Source: an uncultured Verrucomicrobiae bacterium
GTDB taxonomy: Bacteria; Verrucomicrobiota; Verrucomicrobiia; Chthoniobacterales; Chthoniobacteraceae
NCBI GenBank assembly: GCA_963769025.1
Contig: CAVYKI010000009.1
Coordinates: forward strand, 192,001 to 256,000
DNA length: 64,000 nt
Reading direction: 5' to 3'
A program made the translations under genes and the position numbers. Shown here piece after piece: positions 4,211 to 38,904 of the stretch; the first letter of the stretch is position 1, and each line of letters opens with the position of its first letter. The notes beneath the pieces were generated by a model. The model saw only the letters and a list, made by a program, of their open reading frames with translations. It was not told the origin of the DNA and did not search any database.

Positions 4211-5784
4211 ATGAACCTCCGTCCCCCTTCATTGCTGATCGTTCTCGCGGCTTGCGGTTTTTGCCTGGGCCTTGTGCCTGCGCGGGCAGGGGAGCGGGTG
4301 CTGTTTGCGTTCGATGACCACGGCATCCCGTGGCAGCACAATCTGAAGGTGACGCTGGTGCCGGCGACGAAGCATCCGGGGAATCCGGTGCTGCGACGCG
4401 GGGCGGAGGGGACGCCGGATCAGGGGCATGCGATTCTGTACGGCACGGTGATCAAGGTCGGGGACACTTTCCGGATGTGGTATCTGGGGATGTTCGAGGC
4501 GGAGATCGTGAAAGGGCCAGGCACCGGGGATGTGGCGGCCGATGTGTTATGCGGAGAGCAAGGATGGCATCCACTGGACGAAGCCGGAGCTCGGGCTGGT
4601 GGAGTTCCGCGGCAGCAGGAAGAACAACATCTGCCTGATCGAGGGCGAGCCGTTCTCGCTGACGCGGGTGAATGACTTCCTCTCGGTGCTGCATGAGCCG
4701 GAGGATCCGGATCCGGCGCGGCGCTTCAAGGTGGCCTACATCGCGCACGTGCCGGTGACCGAAATCCCCGGCGGGATGAGCAAGCTGGGCACGAAGGAAC
4801 GGCTCATCTGCTCGACGATTTGCGCGACGAGCGCGGATGGGCTGACGTGGAAGGTGGACGGGGATCGTCCGGCGAATGCGGGCGGGGAACGCTTTGAGGT
4901 GAGCGCGCTGTACCGCTTCGGTGACTTCTACTACACGACGGGGCAGCTCCTCTCGCCGTGGTCGTGGCTCGCGGATGGGAGCAAGGCGGGGCGCGTGATG
5001 CTGGCTTACCGGTCGCCGGATTTCAAAACGTGGTCGCAGGCGAAGGCGTTCGCATTTGCGCGGCCGGGGCAGCTCGCGAACCCGCCGGTGAAGGGTCAGC
5101 AGACGCACATGGGCGCGGGGATGTGGAATCGCGGCAACGTGCTCGTGGGGCTGTACGGCATGTGGCAGGACGCGGCGGAGCCGCCGGCGAAAGGGGAGTC
5201 CTTCAACAAGGGCGTGCATGTGGATCTGGGGCTGATCGTGAGCAACGACGGCATCCATTTCCGCGAGCCGGTGCCGGGATTCAAGGTGATCGAGCGCGGA
5301 CCGGAAGGGGCGTGGGATGACACGGCGCTGCTGCAGGGGCATGCCTTCGTGAACGAAGGGGACAGGACGATGATCTGGTATTCGCACTGGGACACGGGCG
5401 GGAAGATGAAGACGATGGAGATCGGGCTGGCCACGCTGCGGCGCGACGGCTTCGGCTATCTGTCGGCGATGAAGGAGGACAATGACGCGCATTTCGTGAC
5501 CGCGCCGCTCACGGCCGGCGAAGGGCGGCAGGCTGTGGATCAATGTCGATGGCATCACGCCCGAGGCGCCGCTCACGGTGGAACTGCTCGACGGGCGGGA
5601 CCAGCCGCTGGCGGGTTATTCCGGGGCGGACGCGGCGAAGGTCTCGGTGAGCGGAATCCGGCAGGAGATCGTGTGGCCGGGGACCGGGACGGCGTCGGTG
5701 CCGGCGGAGCAACCGATCGAGATCCGGGTGAAGCTGCCGGCAAACAGCAAGGCGCGGGTGTTTGCGATATATCTCGAGGATTAG
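4211..5784 (+). CDS. Secreted beta-propeller glycoside-hydrolase-like protein (frameshifted near 4520 and 5525)
   Basis: Signal peptide; KHPGNPVL, FRMWY, YAESKDGIHWTKP, SNDGIHF, GLATLRRDGF spread over three ORF pieces. Confidence 0.7.
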
Positions 5785-5864
5785 CGTGGAAGGGACGGCC
5801 GGAGCGTTCTTAGATCCCGCGAACTTGAGACAGCCGGGCTGTCGCAGGAGCCGATTCAGTCGAT

Positions 5865-6382: not shown

Positions 6383-8266
6383 GTGGTGAACCCATCCATC
6401 CAACCGGTGGCTGGCTCGGAATCAGGCTTTCCGGATGATGCCTGCGAGCTGTTCCGCGCCATTGCGGATGCGGGGGAGGAAGCTATCCCGAAGCCGGCGG
6501 CTGTCCCTGTAACGCGCACGGGACGGGCGTTGTTGATCGAGGCGAATCCGTTTTTCCGCGAGACGATCAAGGAGGCGCTGGTAGAGCACGGCTACACCGT
6601 CATCGCTGTGTCGGACTGCCAGGAGGCGTTGAGGGAATTGATGATCGGCGATTTCACGCTGGTGCTTTACGATCCGACGGTGCCGGGCATGCGGGGAGAC
6701 ATGTTCTACAGCGCCGCGGAACGGATCGATCCTGAGGTTTGCGAGCACTTCGTGTTCATGTGCGGCAGCCGCGTGGATGCGAATACTCAGGAATTCATCA
6801 GGAGCATCAACGGGCTCATGGTGAGAAAGCCCTTTGAGGTGGATGATCTGCTGGCTGCGCTGGTTCGGATCGGGCCGCACGACGCGTCGCAAAGTGCTCG
6901 TCGCACCGGGCGGATGAACCCGGCTCTTGCCGGTGTTTTCCGGCCGGAAGAGGATCAGCCGGTGGAGAACCTCCCAGCCGAAAATGCCGCCGGCATCCTT
7001 GTGCGACCTCAGGCCGATCTTTCTGATGATGGTTTCGCGGCTTCGTTCGAGGAATCGGACGCGGCGAGGGAAATCCAGCCGGATCTGGAGACTGCTGCCA
7101 CGCTGCAACGGGGGCGGCTCTTGTTGCTCGAGGCCGAGCCTTCCCAGCGGGAAAATCTCGCCGGGTGCCTGGTCAGGAATGGCTATACGGTCGTGGCGGT
7201 CCGCGACGCGGCGGAAGCCCTCCGGGAACTGCTGAGCGGCGATTTCGCGCTCGTTCTTTACGATCCCCGGATGGCCGGGATGTCGGCGGCGAAATTTTTC
7301 CATTCGCTCAAGCGGATCGAACCGGACCTCTGTGAACGCTTCCTGTTCATGATCGATGAGGGCCTTTCCCGGAGCACGAATCACTTCATCCGCAAGGTCG
7401 ATGGGTTCGTCCTCCGGAAGCCGTTTGAGCCGATGGATCTTCTCGATGCGCTCTTCTCGGCCGAGACCCGTGGCTCATTTCAGGACACCATCGGACGTGC
7501 CTCCGCCGATCCGATCCTTTCGCAACTGTCGCCGCACTTGGAGGATTTTCCGGAGGAGGAGAACCATGCCCCGCAGCCGTCCGGCGTTGTGGAAAAAGAG
7601 CCGGCGAACGGCCAGGCAGTCGTCGCACCGCTCCTGTTCCGCCGGATCGAGGCGCAGGAGGAAAGTGAGGCGCCGGCCGGCGCGGGCGGATTCATGCGGG
7701 CGCTTGCGCTTGCGGCGCTCATTCTCATCGTCGCCATGGTGACCGGGCTGTGGACGCGGCATGCGGATGCGCGGGATCGGTTCGAGGCCGCGTCGGCGAG
7801 GCGTTCCGCGCTGGTCACGGAATGGACGGCCATTTCGCGGAACCTGGAGGAAGCCATCTCCCTGCGCGCGAATCTCGATCTTCCCGAGATGCTCTGGAAG
7901 CGAATCTCGGCATTCCAAACGCAGGAGCGGTGGACGCCTGTCCTTTCCTCCCTCATCCCGAACGACTCCATGATCGAGCCTCTCGAGATCGAGGCGCGCG
8001 GAGAGACGGAAAATTCGGGCGCGTGGGAAGTGCGCATCCACGGCCTGGCCGGCGGGCCTTCGCCGAAGGAGACTGTCGATCGGTTCCGGATGGAGCTGGA
8101 GAAAGCGCTGAGAAGGAAGGCGAACGGACGCACCGTGAGCACGCGGTTTGAACAGATCGGGAACAAGGACGCGAAGCCTCCGGCGGGGGAGCGACATCGG
8201 TTTACGCTGATCGCCACGCTCGGCCTGCCCGAGTCGTCCGTGGCTGCAGCGAAGGAGGAACGCTGA
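6383..8266 (+). CDS. Fusion of two response-regulator receiver domains, a TM helix and a PilN-like periplasmic domain
   Basis: Two LL.E..GYTV.AV.D..EAL..VLYD...KPF repeats; TM ALALAALILIVAMVTGLW; coiled coil; RWTPVLSSL..VRIHGLA..VDRFRMEL..FTLIATL; start uncertain. Confidence 0.75.
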   Translation: MVNPSIQPVAGSESGFPDDACELFRAIADAGEEAIPKPAAVPVTRTGRALLIEANPFFRETIKEALVEHGYTVIAVSDCQEALRELMIGDFTLVLYDPTVPGMRGDMFYSAAERIDPEVCEHFVFMCGSRVDANTQEFIRSINGLMVRKPFEVDDLLAALVRIGPHDASQSARRTGRMNPALAGVFRPEEDQPVENLPAENAAGILVRPQADLSDDGFAASFEESDAAREIQPDLETAATLQRGRLLLLEAEPSQRENLAGCLVRNGYTVVAVRDAAEALRELLSGDFALVLYDPRMAGMSAAKFFHSLKRIEPDLCERFLFMIDEGLSRSTNHFIRKVDGFVLRKPFEPMDLLDALFSAETRGSFQDTIGRASADPILSQLSPHLEDFPEEENHAPQPSGVVEKEPANGQAVVAPLLFRRIEAQEESEAPAGAGGFMRALALAALILIVAMVTGLWTRHADARDRFEAASARRSALVTEWTAISRNLEEAISLRANLDLPEMLWKRISAFQTQERWTPVLSSLIPNDSMIEPLEIEARGETENSGAWEVRIHGLAGGPSPKETVDRFRMELEKALRRKANGRTVSTRFEQIGNKDAKPPAGERHRFTLIATLGLPESSVAAAKEER

Positions 8267-8268
8267 AT

Positions 8269-8844
8269 ATGGGAACCACGAAGAGCTGGATGTTGTTTCG
8301 CGGGCTCGCAGCCTGCGGCCTCGCGCTGATGGCCGGGCGGGAATTTTACAAGCGGTCGATCGTTTCGTTGCGGGAGCAGGAACAGGAGGTTCTCCGGGAC
8401 ATTGGGGATCTGCCTGAGCGCGTCGAGAGCGCCAAAGGGAAGCTTGCGGAGATTCATGCGCAGGGAAGACAGGAAGGGGCTGCCGCGAACGAAACGGAAC
8501 TGGATGGACTTCCGCAAGGCCTGATGCCGACTGCCGTGCCGGCGCTTGTGAGCGGGCACTTCGCGAAGTTCGGACTCGCTGCGCCGACGATCGTGAATAC
8601 TGCAACGGCGGAGGCCCCCGGGGTTCCACACTACGAGATCAGTTCCTGGCGGCTGACCGTGCCGGTCGCGAAGGACGTCCAGAATTTCGCGTCGCTGCTG
8701 CGTGCGGCGGAGGCCCTCGGTCCGGGAGGTTCGGACATTCAGGTCCGCGATTTTGTCCTCTGGCCTGACCCGGAGGATTCCGCGCGGCAACGCGCGACGA
8801 TCCGTTTTGACGTCCTCGCGAAGCGAACGGAAGCCGCCCGGTAA
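8269..8844 (+). CDS. PilO/GspM-like membrane-anchored protein
   Basis: N-terminal hydrophobic helix, coiled coil, then WRLTV..FASLLRAAEAL..IQVRDF..ATIRFDVL; 2 bp after the PilN-like gene. Confidence 0.62.
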   Translation: MGTTKSWMLFRGLAACGLALMAGREFYKRSIVSLREQEQEVLRDIGDLPERVESAKGKLAEIHAQGRQEGAAANETELDGLPQGLMPTAVPALVSGHFAKFGLAAPTIVNTATAEAPGVPHYEISSWRLTVPVAKDVQNFASLLRAAEALGPGGSDIQVRDFVLWPDPEDSARQRATIRFDVLAKRTEAAR

Positions 8845-8955
8845 TCTACGGGCACGGCGGGGGTGATGGGCCCGGAAGGGAGCGTTCGTCCGTCCCTTCG
8901 CCCCGTGCCCTCGAAGCACGGCGGAGCGATGCGTTCCGCCTTTTGGAAAGCCGCG

Positions 8956-10485
8956 CTACAGGTCTCCGCGGGAGTCTTCCAGATAGCTGGCGATATCCCA
9001 ACCGGCGATTCCGGCGTTGTTCCCGAGGGCTTCGTCGTAGTGGAAGCCTCCGTTGCCGCCTCCGTTGATGCGGAAATTCTTCACCACAAAGGATCCTGTA
9101 GTGTCCACGGTTCCGCTGAGCGTGGCCGTGTAGGCGGGGCCGTTGAAGTTCAGAATCTGGACGGCATTGCCCGATGCCGAGTAGGTCGCCGTGCTGGAGG
9201 TGGACACGCCGAAGATCGAGAGACGGGAGGCTACTTTGCTGCTGGTGGCGCCCGAGTTGATGTTGCCGTTGCCGAAGTCGATGTTCCCGTTCACCCAGAT
9301 GTTTGCATAGACGTTCGGCGGAATGGTGATCCCCGCGTTGCCGCCGTTGCCGGTGGCGAGGTTGCCGCTGACGATGATATCGATGTAGCCCGTCGTCGTA
9401 GCGAGCGGAGCGGTCACGGCGAAGGTGCCCAGGTTTCCCGTGATGGCGTAGCGCGTCGGGTTCGCCTTGGTCCCGGTGAGAAATGCCGCAGGACCACTCC
9501 CCGTGTAGGTCGTGGAAGTCCACGTCGGCGCCACGGGCACCGGGATTTCTTCGTCGAAGTCGCTCTTGATCCGGCTTTGGTCGATGCCGCTGTTTCCGGA
9601 GACGTTTTCGTGGGCGGCTGTCGCCGGATCGTCGCCGCCGTTCGTCGTCACCTCGCCTTTGACGACTGCGCCGTTGGCGGCGATCAAGGGCCCGTACGGT
9701 GACGAGGCGGGATTCTCCTTGGCGGTGGCGACATTGCCGTTCGATTGAATCTTGCTGCTGCCCGATCCGGGGTAAATGCCGCCCGCAGTGGTTCCCGGGC
9801 TCGACTTTAACAGGTCCTGCGAGTCGAAGCTGTCCACTTCCCAGTTGGAACTGTTGCCGAGGACGATGTCATTGACCGAGGTGATGGCGCGGCTGGAACG
9901 ATAGCGGGGGCGGACGACGATTTCGACCGTCCGGGTGACGTGCGGGTCCGGGAGCCCGGCGGAGGTTTTCGCGCCGAGCTTCATGCGGCGCAATTCCGTA
10001 TCGCGCGGGTCCTCGGAGACAAACCTGCCGGGAAGGTCGGCCCTTGCCGTGGAGCGGATGCGGTACCACGGATTGGCGGTGGGCGTGAGTCCCGTTCCTT
10101 CGCGGGTGAGGACATCCACGGCGATTTTCGTGACGCGAACATTATTCGGGCCGCCGATGACGGGCAGGTTCGCGGCGGCGAGCGTACGTTCGCCATTGGT
10201 CGCGAAATTCACGGGATCGGTGAGCGTCCACCCACTCGCCGTCCAAGGATAGGCATCCGGAACCGACGTGCTGGCAGTCCAGCTGTTGAGCGTGTTGATG
10301 ACCGTGTCCGCCCCGGCTTCCGCGCCATGCAGCGCTTCCTGCCATGCGACGGCCTGGTGGGTGCCGCGCAGTTTCGGGACGATGCCTTGGAAGTACGCCG
10401 CGACGGAGGCGGCGAGGCAGGCGGTGATCAGCAGGACGACAATCAGCGTGCTGCCCTGGTTTTTTGGGAATGTGCGCATTTTCAT
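8956..10485 (-). CDS. Long PilX/GspK-like minor pilin with Gly/Asn/Thr-rich C-terminal domain
   Basis: QG|STLIVVLLI (no Glu5), ALHGAEAG, YRIRSTA, C-terminal FHYDEAL. Confidence 0.8.
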   Translation of the reverse strand: MKMRTFPKNQGSTLIVVLLITACLAASVAAYFQGIVPKLRGTHQAVAWQEALHGAEAGADTVINTLNSWTASTSVPDAYPWTASGWTLTDPVNFATNGERTLAAANLPVIGGPNNVRVTKIAVDVLTREGTGLTPTANPWYRIRSTARADLPGRFVSEDPRDTELRRMKLGAKTSAGLPDPHVTRTVEIVVRPRYRSSRAITSVNDIVLGNSSNWEVDSFDSQDLLKSSPGTTAGGIYPGSGSSKIQSNGNVATAKENPASSPYGPLIAANGAVVKGEVTTNGGDDPATAAHENVSGNSGIDQSRIKSDFDEEIPVPVAPTWTSTTYTGSGPAAFLTGTKANPTRYAITGNLGTFAVTAPLATTTGYIDIIVSGNLATGNGGNAGITIPPNVYANIWVNGNIDFGNGNINSGATSSKVASRLSIFGVSTSSTATYSASGNAVQILNFNGPAYTATLSGTVDTTGSFVVKNFRINGGGNGGFHYDEALGNNAGIAGWDIASYLEDSRGDL

Positions 10486-10486
10486 G

Positions 10487-11302
10487 TCAGTCGCGGCGGG
10501 GGTTGCGGATTTTCACCTCCACCACGGCGGTGGTCGGTGCGGTGGTGGCTCCGGTGAGGCGGAACCGGGGGGTGAATGAGGACTCCAGGCGGATGGTCTT
10601 GCCGCCATTGAGGCCGCTGACCGCCACGGTGCATGTGGACGTGCTGTCGGTGATGCGCTCGGCGATCTCCCGTGTGGAACTCGGGCTCGTGGCGCCCGAC
10701 GGGTATTCGCTGCGGAGGAAGCACTGGGTCGCATCGGTCGTGGACCGCTGCCCGGTGTAATAGCGGATCTGAAGTTCCCCGGTGCCCGCGCTCACGGGCG
10801 CAAACCGCGTGACGGCCTTGCCGCTGACGGTGGTCTGGGCTTCAGACCACGGGACGATGCCGTTGAGCAGCGGATTGGCGTTGAGGTTGAAAAGCGAGGA
10901 CGTATTGAGCGTGGCCCGCGAGTAGCGCGAGGACTTGTAGGTCGAACCGCCGCTGTTGTTCGGAGTGTTTGATCCGTAGGAATCCGGGACGTGGATGACC
11001 AGGATCGTGGAGCCGCTCACGGTGTAGGCCGTGGCACCGGTGTCCTTGATCGGGGTCGCGGTGCCGCCGGTGAGAACGCTCACGCGCAACGCGCGGCGGA
11101 GATCGACGGTGATCGCGTCAATCATGCGATTCGTGTTGGCCACGCCGACCATGTACTGATCGGTGGCGGTGATGTTTTTGCCGATGCTCATGGACGAGTA
11201 AACGAGCACGCCCATCGCGGTCAGCGCGATGGGAAGGGCGGCCATCAGGTCCACGAGGAGGGCACCGCTCTCCTTCCGGGACTTCAATTTCATGAGTTTC
11301 AT
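10487..11302 (-). CDS. PilW/GspJ-like minor pilin
   Basis: SG|ALLVDLM plus hydrophobic helix, ITVDLRRA, C-terminal VKIRN. Confidence 0.75.
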   Translation of the reverse strand: MKLMKLKSRKESGALLVDLMAALPIALTAMGVLVYSSMSIGKNITATDQYMVGVANTNRMIDAITVDLRRALRVSVLTGGTATPIKDTGATAYTVSGSTILVIHVPDSYGSNTPNNSGGSTYKSSRYSRATLNTSSLFNLNANPLLNGIVPWSEAQTTVSGKAVTRFAPVSAGTGELQIRYYTGQRSTTDATQCFLRSEYPSGATSPSSTREIAERITDSTSTCTVAVSGLNGGKTIRLESSFTPRFRLTGATTAPTTAVVEVKIRNPRRD

Positions 11303-11305
11303 GTG

Positions 11306-11794
11306 CTACAGGCCTCCTTTTGCGATGATGGTGGAAAGCTGCTTGGTGCTCTGCGCCGTGGCGCTGGTCGGCCATGTCGCGGTGACGGTCACTTTCACAA
11401 GGGTGACGATCGGCAGCGTCACGCCGTTGTTGGTGATGCTCCCCGACGCGGAACGGGTGACCACCAGTGCGCTCCCAGTCGGGTAAGGCTGCACCGTGAA
11501 GACTTCCACGGCCCCCGGGAAATTTGCGGCGACCGCACTCGCGGAGCTCATGAGCGATGCGATCCCCGCCGAGGTGGTGATATTGGTCCACGCAGTCGCC
11601 TGCCGGAAAGTCTCGATGCGCTGCTGGACCATCTGACTGGCGGATGAGACCGCCTTGCCTGATCGCGCAATCTTCGTTGCCTGATTGACCGAGGTCGTGA
11701 GGCCGGCGAGGGAAGCGACCGTGACACCCACGGCGACGACGGTCTCCACGAGTGAGATGCCCGCCTGACGGCGGCGGCTGAAGAGCGGTTTCAT
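11306..11794 (-). CDS. PilV/GspI-like minor pilin
   Basis: RRQAG|ISLVETVVAV prepilin motif, QQRIETFR, VTVTATW. Confidence 0.82.
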   Translation of the reverse strand: MKPLFSRRRQAGISLVETVVAVGVTVASLAGLTTSVNQATKIARSGKAVSSASQMVQQRIETFRQATAWTNITTSAGIASLMSSASAVAANFPGAVEVFTVQPYPTGSALVVTRSASGSITNNGVTLPIVTLVKVTVTATWPTSATAQSTKQLSTIIAKGGL

Positions 11795-11892: not shown

Positions 11893-12499
11893 TGCCAGTG
11901 GGCTGCGCGAGCGCCTGCCCTCTCGGCCCCGTTTTGACGGAGGCCGTTTGCCGGGCTGTGGATTGCGCCCGTCGCAAGGGAAAGCCAAAGCCTGCGGACG
12001 CTGCGAGGGACGCCGGAAAGAATGGCAGCAGCGATGCTTGGCGTGACGCAGCAGCGAGCCGCTTCCCCGAGGACGGGATGGGTCAAATCTCAACGACCGT
12101 TACTGGGTCAGTTTTGCACGAGCGTTGATACCGCCGACCCCGAAATGGGGCGAACTGGATGCTCTCTATTACGTTATCCCGCCGCATTTCCGCGCAGCCC
12201 CGGTGTTTGTCCTTCTGTCTTGCCACCTCGGGCAGGAGGAAAAGCGCGTTGCCAAAGCGGTGCTGTGCGGGACGGTTCTCGCCAGGACATTCAGGTAGCA
12301 CTGTCCCCTGTGCCGGAGTGATAGCAGCTAAGGGTGTTGCCGGAGGGCGGATTCGCTCCGTCCGCTTGTTGGGGGGAAATTGCAGTTCGCAGACAGTGGC
12401 GGACAAGTACGGAAAACAGCGGATGAGTTTGACTTCCGTTTCGAACTCCAGCCGTTTTCTAGGTTCTTTTATTCGTAAGTCCCTCTGGCGGAGGAGGGG

Positions 12500-12570
12500 A
12501 GCGGGTAGAGGGAATCGAACCCTCGTATGCAGCTTGGGAAGCTGCCGTTCTACCATTGAACTACACCCGC
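12500..12570 (-). tRNA. tRNA-Gly (anticodon CCC); CCA not encoded
   Basis: Reverse complement GCGGGTGTAGTTCAATGGTAGAACGGCAGCTTCCCAAGCTGCATACGAGGGTTCGATTCCCTCTACCCGCT folds as a cloverleaf. Confidence 0.97.
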
Positions 12571-12589: not shown

Positions 12590-13294
12590 CTATTGCCAGG
12601 AAACGATGTCGTCCGGTGCTTCGCCGGAGCTGGGTTTGCGGAACTGGCCTTCGTAGCCTTTTCCGCCACGCTTGTTGTCCTTACCCATGGAAAAAGATGC
12701 GGCTGCGACGCGAATGACAGACTGGCTCCCAGCGAGGTCCGAGTAAAACTTGCTCATGTCGATCGTCCCGGCGTCGGCGGCGTCGAGGATGATGCAGTAT
12801 TGCGCGCCCCACGGGTCCATCAGCTGGCCTTGGTTCTTGGTAAACTCATTGCCGTCCACGAAGCCATCGCGCGGATTGCTGGGGTCTTTCGCCTTGCCCA
12901 TTTCGAAATATTTTTGCTGACGCTTGTTCATCGCGTACAGGTTGTTCACGCCGCGGTTGATGGAGCGGAGGATGTCGAAAAGGTTGTCGTTCGTGACCGC
13001 GCAGCCTCCTGCGCTGGTGTCCCCGTAGGCGTAGTAACCGCTGGCATTCACGTTTCCGACAAGCGCGGACTGCACGGGCGGGAACTTGCCGTAGTCGTTG
13101 TAGTAGCTCTTGGAGGCGTTGACGATATTGCGGACGGCGGTGCTTGCAGCGGCGCGGCGCGCTTGTTCCTTGGCTCCTGAAAGCGCGGGAAAAAGGAGGC
13201 CCATGAGGATCGCGATGATGGCGATCACCGTCAGCAGTTCGATGAGGGTGAATGCAGCAAGCGGCGACTGGCGGTGGGAGGTGCGGGCGCTCAT
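12590..13294 (-). CDS. Prepilin/pseudopilin with N-terminal cleavage-methylation motif (GspG-like, PVC type)
   Basis: A|FTLIELLTVIAIIAILMGLLFPA, YYNDYGKFP, DPWG..Y, DDIVSW. Confidence 0.9.
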   Translation of the reverse strand: MSARTSHRQSPLAAFTLIELLTVIAIIAILMGLLFPALSGAKEQARRAAASTAVRNIVNASKSYYNDYGKFPPVQSALVGNVNASGYYAYGDTSAGGCAVTNDNLFDILRSINRGVNNLYAMNKRQQKYFEMGKAKDPSNPRDGFVDGNEFTKNQGQLMDPWGAQYCIILDAADAGTIDMSKFYSDLAGSQSVIRVAAASFSMGKDNKRGGKGYEGQFRKPSSGEAPDDIVSWQ

Positions 13295-14867: not shown

Positions 14868-15383
14868 TCAGGAAACCTGCATCTGAGTCGCCAGCCACAG
14901 CACCGCGACCGCGGCGAGCGTCGCGACGATTCCGAGCGCGAGGACTGCGATGCCGGCGGTGTCCTTCTTCGCGACGCTCTTCTGAAAGGGCGACGCGTTC
15001 ATGAAGTTCGACGGCTTGATGCTCTTCGACGCCGCGGCGATCGCGCGGTCTTCATTCGATGGCAGTTCCTGCGCGCCAGCCTCCGCATGTTCAGGGTCGA
15101 AAATCGAGTCCACCTTTCCAAAGCGGATTTTGTCGCCGGGTTTCAATGTGTATTCGGTGTCCGGCTGGAGTTCACTGCCGTTGACCTTGGTGCCGTTTGT
15201 CGATCCCAGATCCTTGAGGAGAAAGATCCCTGCGGACGGTGCGATTTGCGCGTGGTGGCTCGAGACGCTCACGTCATCGATCGGGAAGACATTGTCCGGC
15301 GCGCGCCCGATCGTGAGGGTTTCTTCGGTCAGTTCGTGGTCAGTTTGCGAACCGTCGGGGCGAACGATCTGGAGCTTCGGCAT
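14868..15383 (-). CDS. FHA-domain membrane protein
   Basis: [22 protein letters not shown]-terminal TM helix. Confidence 0.9.
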
Positions 15384-15434: not shown

Positions 15435-16607
15435 CTATTTCACGCGGTCGATCAGCTCGGCGAACTGGCGGAAGAAATACGTCGCGTCGTTCGGGCCGGG
15501 CGCGGCCTCGGGGTGGTACTGCACGCTGAAAACCGGCAGCGACTTGTGCGCGCAGTCCCTCGACGGTCTGGTCGTTGAGGTTGATGTGCGTGACCTCGAC
15601 ATCCTGCGGCAGCGACTCGGCATCCACCGCGAAGCCGTGATTCTGCGAGGTGATCGTGACCTTGCCCGTGCGCGAGATCCTTCACCGGCTGGTTGCCGCC
15701 GCGGTGGCCAAACTTCAGCTTGAACGTCTTTCCGCCGACCGCGTAGCCGAGCATCTGGTGCCCGAGGCAGATGCCGAAGATCGGCGTGCGGCCCATGAGC
15801 TTGCGGATGTTTTCGTGGACGTAGGTGAGCGCCGCGGGATCGCCGGGGCCGTTGGAAAGGAAGACGCCGTCGGGCTTCAGCGCGAGCACGTCCTCGGCGG
15901 ACGAAATTCGCGGGCACGACGCTGCACCTGGAAACCTTCCTGCCGCAGCCGGCGCAGGATGTTCGTCTTCATTCCGAAATCATACGCGACGATTTTGTGA
16001 CGCACCGGCGGGAGCTTCTTGAAGACCTCGTTGCCCTCGCGGATTTCCACGCCCGAGCCGTCGCCCTTCACGATCGTCCACTCCGGCGACAGCGTGTCCG
16101 TCCGGATCCCAATCGAATGCTGCCGCGGGCGTCACCTCTTTCACAAAATCCGAGCCCGCCATCGGCGGCGCGCCCTTGGCCCGCGCGATGGCCGCGTCCG
16201 ACATCGAGTCTCGCTCGTGAGGCACGCCTGCATCGCGCCGCGCGAGCGCAGGTGCTTGGTCAGCGCGCGGGTGTCGACGCCCTGGATGCCGGGGATTTTC
16301 CACTTCGCAGATAGTCGTGAGGTCGCCGGTCGAGCGCCAGTTGCTCGGGATGGCGGACAGTTCCTCGATCACAAAGCCGCGCACGTGCGGCTGCAGCGCT
16401 CTCGTCGTCGAGCGCATTGATGCCGTAGTTGCCGATCTGCGGCGCAGTCATCGCGACGATCTGTCCGCGATACGAGGGATCGGTGAGCACCTCCTGGTAT
16501 CCGGTCATCGAGGTGTTGAAACAGACCTCGCCGACCGCGGTCCCGGGAGCACCAAAGGATTCACCGATAAAGTGACGGCCATCTTCGAGAGCAAGGACAG
16601 AGCGCAT
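15435..16607 (-). CDS. carA: Carbamoyl-phosphate synthase small subunit (several indels)
   Basis: [56 protein letters not shown]. Confidence 0.93.
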
Positions 16608-16737
16608 GAGCGCGCGGAACATGCGCAGCCGTGCGGAAAGTGCGAAGAAAAAACTCGCGGAAAATTTGCAGCCCTCGCGCGGGTGCGTAGCGCGGGCAAT
16701 CCTGCCCGCCGGGGGAGGTCGCGTTCGTGGTCACCCT

Positions 16738-16977
16738 CTACCCCTTGTTCGCCACGATCCAGTCGAGCGCCTTCTGGTAGCTCTGCCGCTGGAGATAGTG
16801 CGCGAAGTCGCCCGGAACGGGGCGGGGGAGCGCGGCACCGAGCTGCGTGATCCTCTCCGACACCGCCTTCAGCTTTTCCAAATGCGCCGCCGGATCGCGC
16901 TCGTAAAAGGCGCGGTCGGCGATCACCGCGAGGCGTTCGCGCAGCGCGTCGGCGAGTTCGTCGTAGAGGTCGGGCAT
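16738..16977 (-). CDS. Small hypothetical helical protein
   Basis: 79-aa ORF with coding-like codon use, 6 bp downstream of the oxidoreductase. Confidence 0.65.
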   Translation of the reverse strand: MPDLYDELADALRERLAVIADRAFYERDPAAHLEKLKAVSERITQLGAALPRPVPGDFAHYLQRQSYQKALDWIVANKG

Positions 16978-16983
16978 GGTGTG

Positions 16984-18063
16984 TTATTCGATTTGGATCG
17001 CCGCGGCCTGCGCCTGCAACGACAGCTCGGCGGCGAGGAATGCGTGCTCCTGCGTCATCGCATTCTCGGTGCGGTTCAGGCAGTCGAGGATGAGCTGGCC
17101 GAAATACGGGAAGCCCACTTCGCCGTGGCAGCGGATGTGATGCTCGCCCTTGTTGTCCACGAGGAAAAGGTGATCGCCCTCCGCCTCCGTCGCGACGTTC
17201 AGATACTTCCGCACCTCGATGTAGCCCTCGGTGCCGAGGATGAACGTCCGCCCGTCGCCCCACGTGCGCAGGCCCTGCGGATTCAGCCAGTCCACGCGCA
17301 CGTAATTCGTCGCCCCGTTGTCCGCGATGAGGTTCGCCTGCCCCCAGTCCTCGAACTCCGCGTATTGCTTGTGGTGATAATTCGCCACCGCCGCATGCAC
17401 GATGCGCGCGCTCTTCGCCCCCGTGTAGGTGAGGAACTGCTCGAACTGATGGCTCCCGAGATCGATCAGGATGCCGCCGCATTTCTCGCGGCTCCAAAAC
17501 CACGGCGGGCGCGTGCCCGGATTGCTCCGGTGCGGCCCCATGCCCATCACCTGCACCACGCGGCCGATCGCCCCCTGCTCGATGAGCTGCCCCGCGCGGA
17601 TGCTCGCCTCCACGTGCAGCCGTTCCGAAAAATACACCGCATACTTTTTCCCCGTGCGTTTCACCGCCGCACGCGCCCCGTCGAGCTGCGCCAACGTCGT
17701 GAACGGTGCCTTGTCGGTAAAGTAATCCTTCCCCGCCTCCAGCACGCGGCATCCCAGCGGCCCGCGATCGCTCGGCACCGCCGCCGAAGCCACGAGCTGC
17801 ACGTCGCGTTGCGCGAGCACCTCGTCCATCGAGCGAAGCGCCTTCGCCGCCGGATATTTTTCCCGGAATTTCTCCACCTTCGCCGCATCCGGATCGAACA
17901 CATACCGGCACTCGCCGCCCGCCTCCGTGAGCCCCTGGCATTGCCCGTAGATGTGCCCGTGGTCGAGCGCCGCCGCCGCGAAGACAAACTCCCCCGGCTT
18001 CACCACCGGCGAAGGTTTCCCCACCGGCGCGTAATTCATTCCGTCTGATTTTTGGTGTGCCAT
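16984..18063 (-). CDS. Gfo/Idh/MocA family oxidoreductase
   Basis: LDHGHI, DYFTDKAP, GGILIDLGSHQ; start at MAHQKSDG. Confidence 0.88.
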   Translation of the reverse strand: MAHQKSDGMNYAPVGKPSPVVKPGEFVFAAAALDHGHIYGQCQGLTEAGGECRYVFDPDAAKVEKFREKYPAAKALRSMDEVLAQRDVQLVASAAVPSDRGPLGCRVLEAGKDYFTDKAPFTTLAQLDGARAAVKRTGKKYAVYFSERLHVEASIRAGQLIEQGAIGRVVQVMGMGPHRSNPGTRPPWFWSREKCGGILIDLGSHQFEQFLTYTGAKSARIVHAAVANYHHKQYAEFEDWGQANLIADNGATNYVRVDWLNPQGLRTWGDGRTFILGTEGYIEVRKYLNVATEAEGDHLFLVDNKGEHHIRCHGEVGFPYFGQLILDCLNRTENAMTQEHAFLAAELSLQAQAAAIQIE

Positions 18064-18353
18064 GTCGTGCCGCGGAAAATGAACGCCCCTCCCGCGAATT
18101 GCAACGCGGCGCTGCGGCAGTCCGGCATTCGTAAAAAGCTGGCCCGTCGCAAACCCGCCCGACCCATCCCGTCCCGGATGCCGCCCTCTCCACCTCATCC
18201 CGACGCATTTCGGCATCGTCAAATCGGGGAGCCGGATGGTCACGGGAAGGTGCGAAACCATCCCGCCCCGCTTCGACACGAATCCGTGGCGAAACTGGAT
18301 GGCTTTGATGACGAACCGAATCATCCAGTCGTGGAATGGGATGTTTCAGACAG

Positions 18354-18707
18354 GGAACTGGATCGTTCAGTCGCGGAACTGGATCGTTCAGTCGTGGAAC
18401 TGAATCGTTCAGTCGTGGAACTGGATCGTTCAGTCGCGGAACTGAATCGTTCAGTCGTGGAACTGGATCGTTCAGTCGCGGAACTGGATCGTTCAGTCGT
18501 GGAACTGAATCGTTCAGTCGCGGAACTGGATCGTTCAGTCGCGGAACTGGATCGTTCAGTCGCGGAACTGGAATCGTTCAGTCGCGGAACTGGATCGTTC
18601 AGTCGCGGAACTGGATCGTTCAGTCGCGGAACTGAATCGTTCAGTCGCGGAACTGGATCGTTCAGTCGCGGAACTGGATCGTTCGGTCGCGGAACTGGAT
18701 CGTTCGG
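18354..18707. repeat. 21-bp tandem repeat array, about 17 copies (GGAACTGRATCGTTCAGTCGY)
   Basis: Counted directly; one 22-bp unit at 18564-18585; degenerate 21-mers extend upstream to about 18290; no spacers. Confidence 0.95.
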
Positions 18708-18872
18708 ACAAGGAGCCAAATGACCGGGAAAAGGGGCAAAAACGCCCATTTTCGCGGAAAATGCGGCCTTTTCACACGGCGGATCACTCCTGCGAAGCCG
18801 AAGCTCGCTCCCGATGGGGCCTCAGAACGCCTCCGCAGCGACCGCGGGATCGGCCCATTCAGACCGCGCGTA

Positions 18873-21848
18873 TCAGGCACCCGGGCGGATGCAATCGTCG
18901 GTGAGAAGGCTTTCCGGATTCGGGAAGCCGGCAGGGATGCCGGGCGCGGTGACGGGTTCGCCGTGTTGCGATGCGGGCGGCGACCTGTTGGTTCAGGGCG
19001 AGGAGTTGGGCGAGGAGGTCGGCCTTGGCGGTGAAGCCGTAGGCGGCGAGGACGGCGGCATCGAGGGCGGCGTGGGCGTCCTTGAGCGGGTTGGCGCCGG
19101 GGAGTTCGAGCGTGCGGTAGAGCGCCCTCAGCCCGCCCTTGAGCTTCGGCAACGCCTCCGCACGGATGCGCCGCACCTCCCGCCCGGCGGCGGCGACGGC
19201 GCTCACCGCTTTCGCCTCCGGGCTCTGCGGCCAGGGGAAGGTGTCGAAGACGGATGGCGGCGTGTAGCGGAAGTCTGACTTGAGCTTGCTGCACTTGGTC
19301 ACGAACCACAGCCAGTGCGCGTGCGATTGGAGAATGCCGAAGCTGTAGTCGTCCGCGAATGCGAAACACGTCGAGCGTGTGATCGGGCGAATCGTCCGAG
19401 CGAGAAATGCAAAGATCGGGCGCTTGGTGACGTCGGAGCACGCGATGTAGCGCGGCATCGTTGCGAGATCGCGATCGAGCATTCGCGGCGTCGACCGCAC
19501 GAGCTGCCACCAAGTATCGAGGAATCGGCTTGTGGTGCGCGCGCTTTCGCCTTCCGCAGATCCTTGCTCTGCTCGGCTTTCTTCTCGCCGATCGGGCAGG
19601 ACGCGCTGTTGCACGACAGCGCAACGGGCTTGGATAGCTGACGCCTCGAGCATGTTCCGCGTGCTGGAAGTCGATGACGCACTCGCTCTGGCGAGCCGTC
19701 GCCAGTGAGCAAGTCCGCGCCCGATGAGAAAGGATGAATGACCTCGGCGGTTGCGGGATCGCGCTTGATCAATTCCGCGCGCTCATGCGGCGCTGAGACG
19801 GAAGCCTTCATGCCCGGAGCTCTGACCCTTGAAGCAACGCTTGCGGCTTCGTATTGCATCGCAACGACCTGTGCACCGCCACGTCCGTTTGGTCGGACAG
19901 CGCGGAGTTGATTTGCGCTACGTCGCGGAAGCTCAGTTCGTATTCCTTCGCCGCGCTTTTCCCCTGCGACTTCCACAGCTTCTTCATCGCGGCAGTCGGC
20001 TCGACCTTGAACCACAGCCGCCGCGTCTTCGGCAGCAGCGCGGCGTCCTGCGTCTTCACCCAATTGGCGATGGAGACGTGGACGTTCGCCTCGCCGCTCC
20101 ACGGCTGGTTGTCCACGGCTTCGACGATGGTGCCGTCCTTCACGACGTGATCGAGGCCGCCGACGCGGGATTGGTTGTTGCGGATGTTCTGCGTGCCGAC
20201 GAGGCCCGCGCGCCCGGCCACGGGATCGGCGGCGGTGCAGGTCGCGAGGTGGTCGTGCGCGCGGCGAATCCAATAGACGCAGAAGTCCGCCATGCCGGGC
20301 ACCTCGGGGTAGAGCTTGCGCAGCGTGTTCACGTAGTCGGGGCCGCGCTCGGGCTTGAGCAGCTTCGCGCCGAGGAAGGGCGGATTGCCGATGATGACAT
20401 CGGCCTGCGGCCACGGGGTGCGTGACGGGCTCGCGCCGTCGGGGTCCGGTGGTCGCAGCAGCGCGTCGGTCGGCGCTGAAGTTCTCGTCGAGATTGTCGA
20501 GCGGCAGGGCCTGCTCGGCGATGTGCAGCTCGTCGATGGCGAGCTTGCGGGCGATCATCATCGTGACCTTCGCGAGCTCGACGGCGAAGGGGTTGATGTC
20601 CAGGCCGAAGAAGTTCTGCGCGGTGAGGAAGGAGAGGCGCATCTGGCCCTCGCCCTCGCTGGCGTGCTTCGGGAACTCGGTGTCGATGCGCTCGCAGATG
20701 CGGGCCTCCAGCCGCTTCATCTCGCGGTAGGCGATGTAGAGGAAGTTGCCGCGAGCCGCAGGCGGGGTCGAGCACGCGGAAGTCGTGCAGCCGGTCGCGG
20801 AGTTCGCGCAGGCGCTTGACGGTCTTCGCGCCTTCGATCTGCTCGCGCCACGGCTCGGACGATGGTCGGCCCGACGATCTTCATGATGTCGACCGGGATG
20901 GGTGAAGTGCGCGCCGAAGGCGTGGCGTTCATCGCGCGTGCCTTCCATGCCGCTCGAGCATGCTCGAAGAGGGTGCCGAAGATTTCCGGCTGCACCTTCG
21001 ACCAGTCGAAGCGTGGCGGCCTTGCGCAGGGCGACGAGCTCGTCGGTCGTGCAGCTCCAGCCGCGCGGGCTCGGCGAAGAGGCCGCCATTGAAGTAGGCG
21101 ACGCCCTTGAACCGCCCGCCGGTGGCGCGGCCTTGGTGTTCATCGCCTCGAAGAGGCCGCCGAGCAGGTCGTAGCTGTCGGCGGGCGATGTGCAGTCGTC
21201 GAGGAGCTGGGTGACGAAGTATTTCGGGAGCAGGTCGATGTCCTCGGCGAAGAGGGCGACGAGCATTTGCAGGATGAAGCGCTGGGCGGTGGGCGGTCCA
21301 CGCCGCGCTTGCGGAACTTGCGGAAGCACGTCGGCGAGGCAGTCGGCGGCTTCGCGGGTGACGGCGACGCGGTCGTTGTCGAAGACGGGCTTGGGCTGGC
21401 CGGGGAAGAGGAAAGCCAGCGGGCCGTAGTGCCCGGCGAGGCTGTCGAGCTTCGCGATGCCGACGGGCGAGTCCATCTGCGTCTCGAAGTCGTAGACCTG
21501 GAACTCGTCGAAGTTGCAGAGGACGACGTAGCGCGGGCGGCCGGGGACGAGGCGCGTCCAGTAGTCGAAGGCCTGGCGGTAGTGCTTCGAGAGCACCGCG
21601 CCGCGCTTCTTCATTTCGATGAGGACGACGGGCTTCCAGACGTAGTCGGCGAAGCTGGTGCCGCCGCCGTCCTCGGTGGCCTTGCGGACGCGGAACTCGG
21701 GCTCGCCGCCGACGTCGAGCGAGCCCGCGTGGCCGAAGGCGAGGAAGAGGCGGTCGAGGAAGATCTGCGCCTGGCCTTTTTCGTCGCCGGTGATGTGGGC
21801 CTGCGCCCATGCGGTGAAGGCGGCGAGTTTGTCCGTGGGGCTGTTCAT
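18873..21848 (-). CDS. MmeI-like Type IIL/IIG restriction-modification enzyme (endonuclease + N6-adenine MTase + TRD), many indels
   Basis: ADYVWKPVVLIEMK (PD-ExK), CNFDEF, YFNGGLF, PEIFGTLFE, LDPACGSGNF, IIGNPPFLG, FDTFPWP, AHAALDAAVLAAYG. Confidence 0.88.
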
Positions 21849-21945
21849 GGTTCCAGTGGCGCGGGCTGTAGCAGCGGCGCGGGAAGTTGGCGAGCGCCGC
21901 TTGCCTTGATTGGGGTGGGGGGATAACGACTGCGCTCCGCTTTTC

Positions 21946-24900
21946 ATGAATCCCACCCGCACCGCGCTCCGCCGACCGATGACCGTCCTGGTCGCTGGTG
22001 ATCGCGGTGTGCCTCGGCGGCGTGGCTCGCGATCCAGCGGATGACGCGCGACATCTTCCCGCCGCTCGGCATCCCGACGATCTATGTGGCGCAGCCGTAC
22101 GGCGGCATGGACCCGGCGCAGATGGAGGGCTACCTGACCTACCGCTACGAGTATCACTTTCTCTACATCGCGAACATCGAGCACGTGGAGTCGAAGTCCA
22201 TCCAGGGCGCTTCGATCATGAAGCTGCAGTTTCATCCCGGCACGGACATGTGCCAGGCGATGTCGGAGACGGTCGCGCAGGTGAATCGCTCGCGCGCCTT
22301 CATGCCGCCGGGCACGGTCGCGCCGTTCATCATGCGGTTCGATGCGGGCAGCGTCGCGGTCGGCTATCTCGTCTTCTCCACGGAGGATCCGAACATCACG
22401 CTCGAACCAGATGCAGGACCAGGCGCTGAACCGCGTGCGTCCCGCGTTTGCCACGCTGCCGGGCGTGTCGGCGCCGCCGCCGTTCGGCGGCAGCTCGCGC
22501 GGCATCATGGTGAATGTGAACCCGGACCGGATGCAGGCCTACGGGCTCTCGCCGGACGACATCGTGAAGGCGCTCGCGCAGGGCAACCTCGATCAGCCCG
22601 TCGGGCAACATGAATCTCGGCGGGCAAATATCCCATCGTGGCGATGAACGCGATCGTCACGAATCGTGAAGGACCTCGAGGCGGTGCCGCTGAAGCAGAC
22701 GGCGAACGGCGCGGTCTTCGTGCGCGACGTGGCGACGGTCGCGGACGCGCGCGGACGTGACCACTTCCTACGCGCTCGCGAATGGCAAGCGCACCGTCTA
22801 TCTGCCGGTCACGAAGCGCGCCGAGGCCTCGACGCTCGCGGTCGTGGAGACTGGTGAAGAAGAACATCCCGGAATTCCAGAAGCTGCTGCCGGACGGCAT
22901 CAAGGTGAGCTACGAGTTCGACCAGTCGCCGGTGGTGAACCGCTCGCATCAAGGATCTGCTGAAGGAAGGCGGGCTCGGCGCGATCCTCACCGGCACTGA
23001 TGGTGCTGCTGTTCCTGCGCGACTGGCGCACGCGCGTTCATCGTGGTGATCAACATCCCGCTCTCGCTGCTCGCCGCGGCGTTCGCGCTGTGGATCAGCG
23101 GGCAGAACATCCACCTCATGACGCTCGGCGGCCTCGCGCTCGCGGTCGGCATCCTCGTGGATGAGGCGACGGTCGCGGTGGAAAACATCCACGCGCACCT
23201 CGCGCGCGGCACGTCCGCTCGCGCGCGCGGCGCTCGACGGCACGCTGCGAGACGGCGCTGCCGCGTTTGCTCGCGATGCTGTGCATTCTCGCGGTGTTCA
23301 TCCCGGCGTTCTTCATGGTCGGCGCGGCGCAGGCGCTCTTCGTGCCGATGGCGCTGGCGGTCGGCTTCGCGATGGTCGCGTCGTTCATCCTGTCGAGCAC
23401 GCTGGTGCCGATCCTCAGCGTGTGGTTTCTCCGCGGACACGACGAAGGCAGTCCACGATGCGTCCGTCTGTCGGCAGGCTGCAGTCGCGTCTACGCGGGC
23501 GTGCTCCGCGGCGTGGTCGCGGTGCGCTGGCCGCTGGTGCTGATCTATCTGGTCGCTGCGGGTGCGGCGGTCTGGATCATCGGCGGCCGGCTCGGCACGG
23601 AGATTTTCCCGAAGACGGACACCGGGCAGTTTGCGCTGCGCTTCCGCGCGCCGAGCGGCACGCAGGTCGGCATGACGGAGAGCAATCGCGCAGCAGATCC
23701 TCGCCATCATCGCCCGCGAGGCCGGCGGCGCGGACAAGGTCGAGATGACCATCGGCATGGTCGGCGTGCACAATTCCAGCTTCCCCGTGAATCTCGTCCA
23801 TCTCTGGAACGGCGGCCCCGAGGAAGGCTGGCTCGCGGTGCAGCTCAAGCGCGGCACCGGCGTGCAGATCGAGGCATTCAAGGAGCGGCTGCGCGGCGTG
23901 CTCGCGAAGGAGCTGCCCGACGTGCGCCTGTCCTTCGAGCCGCAGGACATCGTCACGCGCGTGATGAGCTTCGGCTCGCCGACGCCCATCGAGATCGCCG
24001 TCAGCGGCCCGAGCCTCGCCGGCGAGCAAGGACGCACGCGGAGAAGATTGCTCGCGAAGCTGCAAGAAGCTCCCCTTCCTGCGCGATGTGCAGATCGCGC
24101 AGACGCTCGATTTCCCGACCGTGAATGTGAAGATCAACCGCGAGCGCGCCGGCCTGCTCGGCGTGAATGTCGAGGACGTCACGCGCTCGCTCGTCGCCGC
24201 GACGACATCGAGCCGCTTCACCATCGCCGAATCTACTGGGCCGATCCCGGCACGGGCATCAGCTTCAATCTGCAGGTGCAGATTCCCGAGGAGCGCACGC
24301 AGACGCATCGAGGACCTGAAGAACGTGCCGGTCACCGCCGAGCGGCGGCAAGACCGTGCTGCTGCGCAACCTCGCGGACATCGACGACCGGCACCGCCGT
24401 CGGCACCTACGAGCGCTACAACATGGCGCGCGTCGTCAGCATCACCGCGAACATTCACGGCACGGATCTCGGCACCGCGATCGCGCGAAATCCGCAAGGC
24501 GATCGCCGAGGTCGGACCTGCGCCCGACGGCAAGACGAAGGTGGATGTGCGCGGCCAGGTCGTGCCGCTGCGAGCAGCTGCATGGACGGCTTCCGCTCCG
24601 GGCTCATCATCGCGGTGCTCGTGATCTTCCTGATGCTCATGGCGAATTTCCAATCCGTGCGCCTCGCGCTCGCCGTCGTCTCCACGGTGCCCGCCGTGCT
24701 CGCCGGCGTGGTGCTCGCGCTGTGGCTCACGGGCACGACGCTGAACATCCAGTCCGCGATGGGCGCGATCATGGCCGTCGGCGTCGCGGTCGCGAATGCG
24801 ATCCTGCTCGTGACCTTCGCGGAAAAGGCGCGCGTCGCGCAGCGCCGATCCGCAGCGCCGCCGCCATCGAGGGCGCGCGCAGCCGCCTGCGGCCGATCCT

Positions 24901-25154
24901 GATGACCAGCTTCGCGATGATCGCCGGCATGATGCCGCTCGCGCTCGGCCTCGGCGAAGGCGGCGACCAGACCGCGCCGCTCGGCCGCGCCGTGGTCGGC
25001 GGCCTCGCTGCGGCCACGCTCGCCACGCTCTTCATCCTGCCCTGCGTCTTCGCCCTTCTCACGACACGCAAGGTCCGCTCCGCCTCGCTCGATCCCGGAT
25101 GATTCGGAGAGCGCGCATCACGCAATCAGCCAACTCCAAGTCCAGACACCATGA
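21946..25154 (+). CDS. RND efflux permease (AcrB/CusA superfamily), many indels
   Basis: [55 protein letters not shown]; stop inferred at ATGA overlap with the next gene. Confidence 0.9.
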
Positions 25155-33992: not shown

Positions 33993-34010
33993 CGTGCGGA
34001 CTGCGCGCCG

Positions 34011-36454: not shown

Positions 36455-36614
36455 ATTCAAGAATGTCCCTTTGTGCCGGACCCGCATTCGCGGCGGGTCC
36501 GATTCCCGCGCGCATTGGCCACACCGTTCGCATCATCGCAAGCGCGAAAGCGGCGGGGGATCACCGGCAGTCGGAATGGGTCTCGAGGGCGTGATTGCGT
36601 CGCGTGATTGAGTC

Positions 36615-38702: not shown

Positions 38703-38904
38703 CGTCGGCAGCGTCCACGCTTTCACGGCAGTGTCAACGCGCCCCTGCGCTTCCTGCCTTCGCGGCACTTTCCGTCGCAACAAACTCACACGGCTTTTAC
38801 AAAAGGATCACAACTCCGTGCGGCGCGCGGGCTACGAAGGGTGCAGCGCGCGGCGTTGCAAGCGCCGGCGCGGCAAAGCACGATTCGATCAACCCCGTCA
38901 TCCC

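Follow-up and report, generated by a model that had tools for sequence, protein, structure and literature searches.

The closest described counterparts of the locus presented here are two pairs of inner-membrane proteins of type IV filament machines, namely GspL and GspM of the type II secretion system (T2SS; EpsL/EpsM, XcpY/XcpZ) and PilN and PilO of the type IV pilus (PilMNOP). GspL is a bitopic protein with a cytoplasmic domain, one transmembrane (TM) helix and a periplasmic domain of permuted-ferredoxin fold; its cytoplasmic domain is actin-like and binds the GspE ATPase, and its gene is directly followed by that of GspM, a smaller bitopic protein that shares this fold, beside the genes of minor pseudopilins (gspH-I-J-K-L-M in E. 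coli K-12). PilN and PilO combine a TM helix with a long helix and a core of two alpha-beta-beta repeats, and PilN begins with an INLLP-type peptide to which PilM binds. Minor pilins are known to prime filament assembly in such systems. Here we describe a gene pair with features of both couples, found in a 64,000-nucleotide stretch of DNA from an uncultured Verrucomicrobiae bacterium (contig CAVYKI010000009.1; this whole stretch is referred to as the window), in which response-regulator receiver (REC) domains stand where GspL and PilN have their cytoplasmic contacts.

The first gene of the pair encodes a 627-aa protein with two RECs, one TM helix and a C-terminal module, and is followed after 2 nt by the gene of a 191-aa partner; three prepilin-like genes on the opposite strand converge on the pair tail to tail (Table 1). 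Like GspL, the protein has a cytoplasmic domain, one TM helix and a periplasmic permuted-ferredoxin domain in its predicted layout; as with gspL, its gene lies beside minor pseudopilin-type genes and precedes the gene of a short protein with a single TM helix and a similar predicted fold, so that the gene content of the module resembles gspI-J-K-L-M. The actin-like, GspE-binding domain of GspL, however, is replaced by one or two RECs, and the cytoplasmic part of the 627-aa protein consists of two RECs and their linkers. We consider it fairly probable that the two proteins form the alignment pair, GspL/PilN-like and GspM/PilO-like, in the inner-membrane part of a type IV filament machine, and that the RECs of the window protein act independently of phosphorylation. 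The machine type is familiar, while the tethering of receivers to an alignment protein and the five-gene module appear to be undescribed. Full-text literature searches, which covered neither subscription journals nor database annotation pages, gave no account of a PilN- or GspL-type protein with a fused REC. This agrees with a first-pass annotation of the window, made from the sequence alone, which knew of no such description. The same annotation had proposed the order REC-linker-REC-linker-TM-coiled coil-C-terminal domain, a PilO-like gene 2 bp downstream and a convergent minor-pilin triplet. The domain order was recovered by Pfam, a REC profile built from the family, hydrophobicity and an AlphaFold2 (AF2) model; the gap and the convergent arrangement were found as proposed, and a partner directly downstream is kept in two related loci.

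The length of open reading frames (ORFs) is poor evidence for genes in this DNA of 64% GC, in which opposite-strand ORFs reach 320-479 aa. Both forward frames are regarded as coding because their GC content at the third codon position (GC3) is high compared with that at the second (GC2), i.e. 0.76 vs 0.46 for the 627-aa frame and 0.73-0.74 vs 0.49 for the 191-aa frame. The codon bias is even along the whole 627-aa ORF. Three antisense ORFs (6422-7384, 7475-8629 and 7480-8919) were unsupported as coding, two of them having a lower GC3 (0.67 and 0.62); ORF 7480-8919, with a GC3 of 0.75 near that of the forward frames, was set aside for its high GC2 (0.60) and its position antisense to two genes with homologues.

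The fusion of REC domains to the C-terminal module recurs in other proteins. Two relatives are collinear with the 627-aa protein almost throughout, i.e. P0004 (643 aa, 60% identity) over residues 47-627 and P0028 (620 aa, 43% identity) over residues 28-625, and both alignments continue through the two linkers, including the stretch 7500-7750. An exhaustive HMMER search with the C-terminal module (residues 440-627) returned 134 clusters, defined at the 50% identity level, at E<=1e-3, compared with one near-length relative of this region in a word-based homologue search. Response_reg of Pfam was matched in 57 of the 133 family representatives scanned, and the family-built profile found a REC in 64 of 135 family proteins: 57 carry one REC and seven carry two, the latter including the window protein and one protein with a remnant only. 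The members without REC are mostly 170-245 aa long, with a short or absent cytoplasmic tail, and some are plainly fragments. Since full-length collinear homologues exist and a REC occurs on this module in nearly half of the family proteins, these comparisons indicate that the fusion is genuine, and they speak against a missed stop or misassembly, a possibility raised by the first-pass annotation. The number of RECs is evolutionarily labile: members without REC, with one canonical REC and with two can be ranged in a series that ends with degenerate RECs.

The C-terminal module (residues 430-627; 198 residues) was modelled by AF2 from a 111-sequence alignment with a mean predicted local distance difference test score (pLDDT) of 87.3. 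The model shows a single long helix at residues about 436-513, comprising the TM segment and about 55 further residues, followed by helix-strand-strand-helix-strand-strand. The TM segment is the only strongly hydrophobic stretch of the protein (Kyte-Doolittle values of 1.65-2.35 in 19-residue windows only for starts 431-443, together about residues 431-461) and is helical in the model. Hydrophobicity and AF2 model thus give the layout of PilN, with a single TM helix, a long helix and two alpha-beta-beta repeats; the domain would be periplasmic since the RECs are presumably cytoplasmic. Structural comparison by Foldseek matched the periplasmic domains of EpsL (2w7v_A, E 6.5e-3, target TM-score 0.63, root-mean-square deviation 3.6) and XcpY (5n7l, TM-score 0.55; 6ghu_A, TM-score 0.64), as well as a Myxococcus PilO model (1.6e-2). 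In the ESM Atlas, used for leads only, PF05137 PilN clusters made up seven of 30 feature matches (score 0.90, 155 shared features). At the sequence level, GspL_C (PF12693) was matched by two of 58 short relatives, with a best E of 6.9e-5 that lies below the cutoff. A relaxed Pfam scan of the window protein, up to an E of 1, gave no match to PilN (PF05137); this family was matched at E<=1e-3 by none of 133 relatives, and is missing among the 25 families listed (of 58 matched) for 58 short members. The module is therefore best described as GspL/PilN-like in topology and predicted fold; its sequence does not demonstrably place it in either family.

The AF2 model of the 191-aa partner (pLDDT 75.5) consists of a long N-terminal helix and a core of two alpha-beta-beta repeats. 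Its top two Foldseek matches are PilO proteins, of Myxococcus (3jc8_Oa, 1.5e-5) and of P. aeruginosa (2rjz_A, 4.5e-5, TM-score 0.58), and the partner as modelled resembles solved PilO in its TM helix, its long helix and its core; the structural check proposed earlier for the product of this gene thus pointed to a PilO-like fold. The word-based profile search found 17 relatives. Among 20 family members, T2SSM was weakly matched by six (best 0.0016) and PilO by one (0.04), and the ESM Atlas leads included T2SSM_b and T2SSM, either family being carried by fewer than 20% of the cluster members. Profile and single-sequence searches of PDB sequences gave no match for the partner, the single-sequence PDB search with the window proteins offered no route to PilN, GspL, PilO or GspM, and hhalign related the C-terminal family to the partner family with a probability of 11%.

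Two related loci were identified by a profile scan of genome contigs with a 6-sequence alignment, one in a metagenome-assembled genome (MAG) of Chthoniobacteraceae (L001) and one in a MAG of Prosthecobacter debontii (L002). In both, the REC protein, the partner directly downstream and a convergent DUF7305 gene followed by further genes are kept. All five module proteins have matches in L001 at 47-73% identity, including 73% for the DUF7305 protein, 69% for the 271-aa protein and 58% for the 162-aa protein. Three of the five are matched in L002, where the DUF7305 orthologue (28% identical) occupies the same position and the following two genes carry N_methyl motifs, that of the positional counterpart of the 271-aa protein with an E of 6.1e-7. 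The five-gene module is found in all three loci with context, and its flanks are housekeeping genes that differ in each genome. The conserved unit thus comprises the genes of the two alignment-type proteins and those of three minor (pseudo)pilins, five in all. Of the checks suggested by the first-pass annotation, the recurrence of the fusion was found in the family, and its linkage to pilin genes in these three loci.

As a comparator, GspL/GspM is at least as good as PilN/PilO, and the weak sequence signals in relatives, to GspL_C and T2SSM, point to the type II secretion pair. The locus departs from T2SS operons in that its pilin genes are convergent and not co-directional, and no gspC, D, E, F or O lies nearby, no model of these families having been passed by the scanned ORFs of the window and of the two related loci. 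The likeness to PilN/PilO lies in the topology, the long helix and the core, and in the structural matches of the partner, whereas the N-terminus of the 627-aa protein has no peptide of INLLP type, and neither pilM nor pilP or pilQ was found among the same ORFs. An INLL-type N-terminus occurs in one of the 64 short members without REC, for which reason the family probably does not depend on PilM, and it may never have used it, as far as these N-termini tell. The member concerned (P0136, the most distant short one) begins MAIHINLL, a PilN-type motif. The names "PilN-like" and "PilO-like" given by the first-pass annotation thus hold for fold, topology and context, but no PilN, PilO, GspL_C or T2SSM model was passed by the window proteins; the structural check that it proposed for the C-terminal domain gave the EpsL and XcpY matches (TM-scores 0.55-0.64), none of which reaches E<=1e-3. 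Its idea of a replaced PilM-binding tail agrees with the place of the RECs, but is weakened by the rarity of the INLL-type N-terminus. That the module is signal-gated, finally, suits the mostly canonical RECs of the family, but is doubtful for the window protein, whose RECs are described below.

Both RECs of the window protein match response-regulator models of Pfam and NCBIfam; in Pfam, Response_reg (PF00072) covers two stretches with an E of 1.1e-15 and 58.2 bits (cutoff 30.2). The key positions given in Table 1 correspond to D12, D13, D57, T87, A88 and K109 of CheY, with the established roles of these residues. In alignments with PDB chains, the E-A of REC1 faces the D-D pair of a Thermotoga receiver (3a0r_B), and REC2 was aligned with the receiver of FleR (7w9h_A). 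Neither REC has a complete phosphorylation pocket: the Mg-binding Asp is replaced by Ala in both, and the switch Thr by Cys in REC1 and by Ile in REC2. Of the 71 REC domains of the family, 51 have Asp at the D13 position, 55 have Thr or Ser at the T87 position, 67 have the phospho-acceptor Asp and 70 the conserved Lys. The losses seen in the window protein are shared by its closest relatives P0004, P0005, P0024 and P0028, whereas the pocket of the Prosthecobacter orthologue in L002 is canonical (E, D, D, T, K). In a FastTree REC tree, which has no support values and is indicative only, the degenerate RECs form one clade, within which the N-terminal RECs group together and so do the membrane-proximal RECs; two-REC proteins with canonical pockets (P0048 and P0131) are placed elsewhere. 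As these two fall outside the degenerate clade, REC duplication probably occurred more than once. In the L001 orthologue, only the last third of REC1 is left, directly preceded by an in-frame stop (L001 9026-9047 and upstream), which we read as a natural loss of REC1. A porphobilinogen deaminase gene abuts the truncated REC1 in this locus. Given the loss of the Mg-binding Asp and the switch Thr and the decay of REC1 in L001, the window receivers look like pseudo-receivers or atypical receivers, while the family at large looks phosphorylatable.

The juxtamembrane linker is of low complexity, and its conserved part directly after REC2 (the RASADPILSQLS region) is common to the window protein, P0004 and P0028. 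Recurrent motifs in the linkers of the family are AEVRxTFxSVF directly after the REC and KVAxILAR closer to the membrane, with RASxDPxLSQ in the subclade of the window protein. These motifs could represent partner-binding peptides.

A working model can be outlined on this basis. The pair and the three minor (pseudo)pilin genes would constitute a compact module that serves either a type IV pilus or a machine resembling type II secretion, with the RECs in the cytoplasm and the C-terminal module in the periplasm. By analogy with PilN/PilO and GspL/GspM, and in keeping with the 2-nt spacing and the conserved adjacency of their genes, the two proteins would associate via their TM segments, helices and core domains, and would position or prime the tip complex of minor pilins. 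The REC probably serves as a cytoplasmic docking or control surface towards a motor ATPase or platform encoded elsewhere, since it sits where PilN has its PilM-binding peptide and GspL its ATPase-binding domain. In canonical members, phosphorylation by an orphan kinase may control assembly post-translationally, as suggested by the canonical state of most family receivers. In the window subclade, the RECs are most likely phosphorylation-independent pseudo-receiver domains for docking or dimerisation, because neither retains the Mg-binding Asp or the switch Thr.

Several results weigh against the assignment of the pair to an alignment complex. Foldseek gave no match to PDB at E<=1e-3 for the C-terminal module, and the best matches, engineered circular S6 permutants (2.3e-3) and phage tail terminators, suggest a generic fold match; such terminators are likewise among the high-ranking matches of the partner. 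The PilN/GspL assignment rests on predicted structure with modest Foldseek scores. No PilN or GspL_C model in Pfam or NCBIfam was passed by the 627-aa protein, the family-profile search of PDB sequences returned nothing significant (Myxococcus PilN at E 0.26), and hhalign comparison of the family profile with the single sequences of E. coli K-12 GspL (E 0.41) and HofN gave no match. For the partner (P0002), no Pfam family was matched at E<=1, PilO (PF04350) and GspM (PF04612) included, and no NCBIfam model; its family profile likewise failed to match E. coli K-12 GspM and HofO, each as a single sequence, in hhalign. No PilM, PilB/GspE, PilC/GspF, secretin, prepilin peptidase or histidine kinase family was detected in 61 window ORFs (16 neighbouring and 45 further ones, a selection picked by codon bias) and 29 ORFs of L001 and L002 (10-kb flanks), and the synteny claim is based on three genomes. 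The Pfam scans of the window ORFs revealed no DNA-binding family either, in line with the first-pass annotation, which had noted the absence of pilM, kinase and DNA-binding output. Finally, both window RECs still have the phospho-acceptor Asp and the Lys, so that they may undergo atypical phosphorylation.

These points lend themselves to other explanations. If the poor sequence matches are taken at face value, the 627-aa protein could have nothing to do with pili or secretion and neighbour the pilin genes by chance, being a REC protein that is anchored in the membrane and has a periplasmic domain of a generic ferredoxin-like type; the generic permuted-ferredoxin folds among its top structural matches would fit. 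We regard this as improbable in view of the prepilin-type synteny, which holds in three of three loci despite unrelated flanks, the two PilO proteins that head the structural matches of the partner, the weak family-level signals of GspL_C and T2SSM and the PilN clusters among the Atlas look-alikes. An artefactual fusion, by missed stop, frameshift or misassembly, was worth weighing because other genes of the window look frame-split and the assembly may carry indel errors, but it is hardly credible beside collinear full-length homologues from other sources (P0004, P0028), the frequency of the fusion in the family and the even codon bias of the ORF.

The remaining explanations accept the machine and concern the role of the receivers. 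It is unlikely that both are functional phospho-acceptors through which an orphan histidine kinase gates pilus assembly in inside-out signalling: both retain the acceptor Asp and the Lys, both match response-regulator models and most receivers of the family are canonical (Asp at D13, Thr/Ser at T87), but the replacement of the Mg-binding Asp by Ala and of the switch Thr by Cys or Ile, found likewise in the four closest relatives, the decay of REC1 in L001 and the lack of a kinase both in the operon and in the scanned ORFs of the window all speak against it. The reverse direction, in which the periplasmic pair senses the state of the pilus or envelope and alters the REC conformation to inform cytoplasmic partners, is permitted by the topology, and the conserved motifs between REC and TM helix could bind such a partner; it is nevertheless quite improbable, given that REC domains are normally inputs and not outputs and that no cytoplasmic effector was co-encoded among the ORFs scanned in the window and the related loci. 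More tentatively than the phosphorylation-independent alignment pair that we favour, and as a possibility for the family as a whole, its members may be membrane-tethered response regulators with the alignment module as output, in which canonical phosphorylation switches (pseudo)pilus priming across the membrane and from which the window copy is a derived, phosphorylation-independent form. If this were true, the REC would replace PilM or the cytoplasmic domain of GspL as the link to the motor, and the output of a two-component system would consist in inside-out mechanical coupling, not in transcription or second messengers.

Receiver-like folds have been connected to pili in other contexts. The N-terminal atypical receiver of TadZ/CpaE and that of Myxococcus FrzS have degenerate acid pockets and act as localisation or docking modules for pili. 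Their partners and domain context are different, and we know of none fused to a PilN/GspL-type periplasmic module. A further structural match of the partner comes from within Verrucomicrobiota: its predicted fold agrees with the solved core of Amuc_1100 of Akkermansia muciniphila, likewise anchored in the membrane (E 1.9e-3 for 6laf_A; 6lad_D and 6kny_B were matched as well). At the sequence level, the partner matched no PDB chain. Amuc_1100 reportedly lies in a pilus-like gene cluster and has been compared with PilO in the literature. Known receiver-type pilus regulators, such as PilG/PilH of the Pil-Chp system and PdeR (with FimX-PilZ-PilB), are soluble (reviewed in PMC11656802). They resemble the present case in that a receiver controls pilus assembly post-translationally, but they are free-standing, are phosphorylated by a known kinase and act via cyclic AMP, cyclic di-GMP or localisation, whereas the REC is here covalently tethered to an alignment-type membrane protein.

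Table 1. Positions of the gene pair, its predicted domains and the neighbouring features in the window
Feature	Position	Strand	Description
REC-fusion gene	6383..8266	+	GTG start, 627 aa: REC-linker-REC-linker-TM-long helix-alpha-beta-beta x2 domain
REC1	6521..6862	+	residues 47-160, by family-built REC profile; key positions E, A, D, C, G, K
REC2	7112..7453	+	residues 244-357, by family-built REC profile; key positions E, A, D, I, D, K
Juxtamembrane linker	7454..7690	+	residues 358-436, roughly 80 aa, low complexity
Predicted single TM helix	7691..7753	+	residues about 437-457; hydrophobicity and AF2
Long helix, coiled-coil-like, presumably periplasmic	7754..7921	+	residues about 458-513; AF2 helix H7-84, pLDDT 92-98
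Alpha-beta-beta-alpha-beta-beta domain	7934..8230	+	residues about 518-616; predicted permuted-ferredoxin fold as in GspL/PilN periplasmic domains
PilO/GspM-like partner gene	8269..8844	+	191 aa: N-terminal TM, long helix, alpha-beta-beta x2 domain
DUF7305 protein	8956..10485	-	509 aa, hydrophobic pilin-like N-terminus without Glu5, C-terminal DUF7305 (Pfam 2.8e-11); largest of triplet
Prepilin-like protein	10487..11302	-	271 aa, degenerate prepilin-like N-terminus
Prepilin-type protein	11306..11794	-	162 aa, G/ISLVE motif; N_methyl E 0.0074, below cutoff
tRNA-Gly (CCC)	12498..12570	-	between minor-pilin triplet and GspG-like pilin gene
GspG-like (pseudo)pilin	12590..13294	-	234 aa; T2SSG 3.5e-5; TIGR01710 1.9e-12, below cutoff

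Beyond the triplet, the window contains a further pilin gene, of GspG type, whose product has a classic FTLIEL N-terminus and weak matches to "Verru_Chthon cassette protein D/C" of NCBIfam, which points to an origin in Verrucomicrobiota. No counterpart of this pilin was found in the comparison with L001 or L002, and its link to the five-gene module is uncertain. ORF 12083-12556 (- strand) was rejected as spurious, having a low GC3 and overlapping the tRNA-Gly gene. Upstream of the REC-fusion gene, ORF 4530-5813 (+ strand, 427 aa) has good codon bias and no Pfam or NCBIfam match, and is not kept beside the module in L001 or L002; the 570 nt after it contain no convincing ORF.

Elsewhere in the window, a small FHA-domain protein (14868-15383, - strand) also matches the cytoplasmic domain of YscD-type proteins of type III secretion systems. 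A series of genes at 31197-38789 (- strand) codes for a DnaK-related protein that contains DUF3731, for an HSP70-like protein, for DUF2760 and for a GTPase of the dynamin family, and may be a conserved chaperone-like cluster. Pieces of a carbamoyl-phosphate synthase small chain (16260-16622), of an MmeI-type enzyme (18859-19653 and 19299-22508) and of an AcrB-family protein (22041-22613 and 23745-24902) look split over frames; these genes within 16260-24902 are either pseudogenes or the result of assembly indel errors.

The post-translational switching on and off of type IV pili and type II secretion machines is only partly understood, and the regulators known so far are soluble proteins that act on the ATPase. 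Placed within an alignment protein, a receiver would be the shortest possible wire from two-component signalling to the machine, and would offer a simple experimental handle in the form of phospho-mimic and phospho-ablative mutants of one protein. The finding would also give a role to proteins of Verrucomicrobiota that are seen by Pfam and NCBIfam only as "response regulator" or not at all. The series from members without REC to members with degenerate RECs represents natural material for the evolution of receivers into pseudo-receivers.

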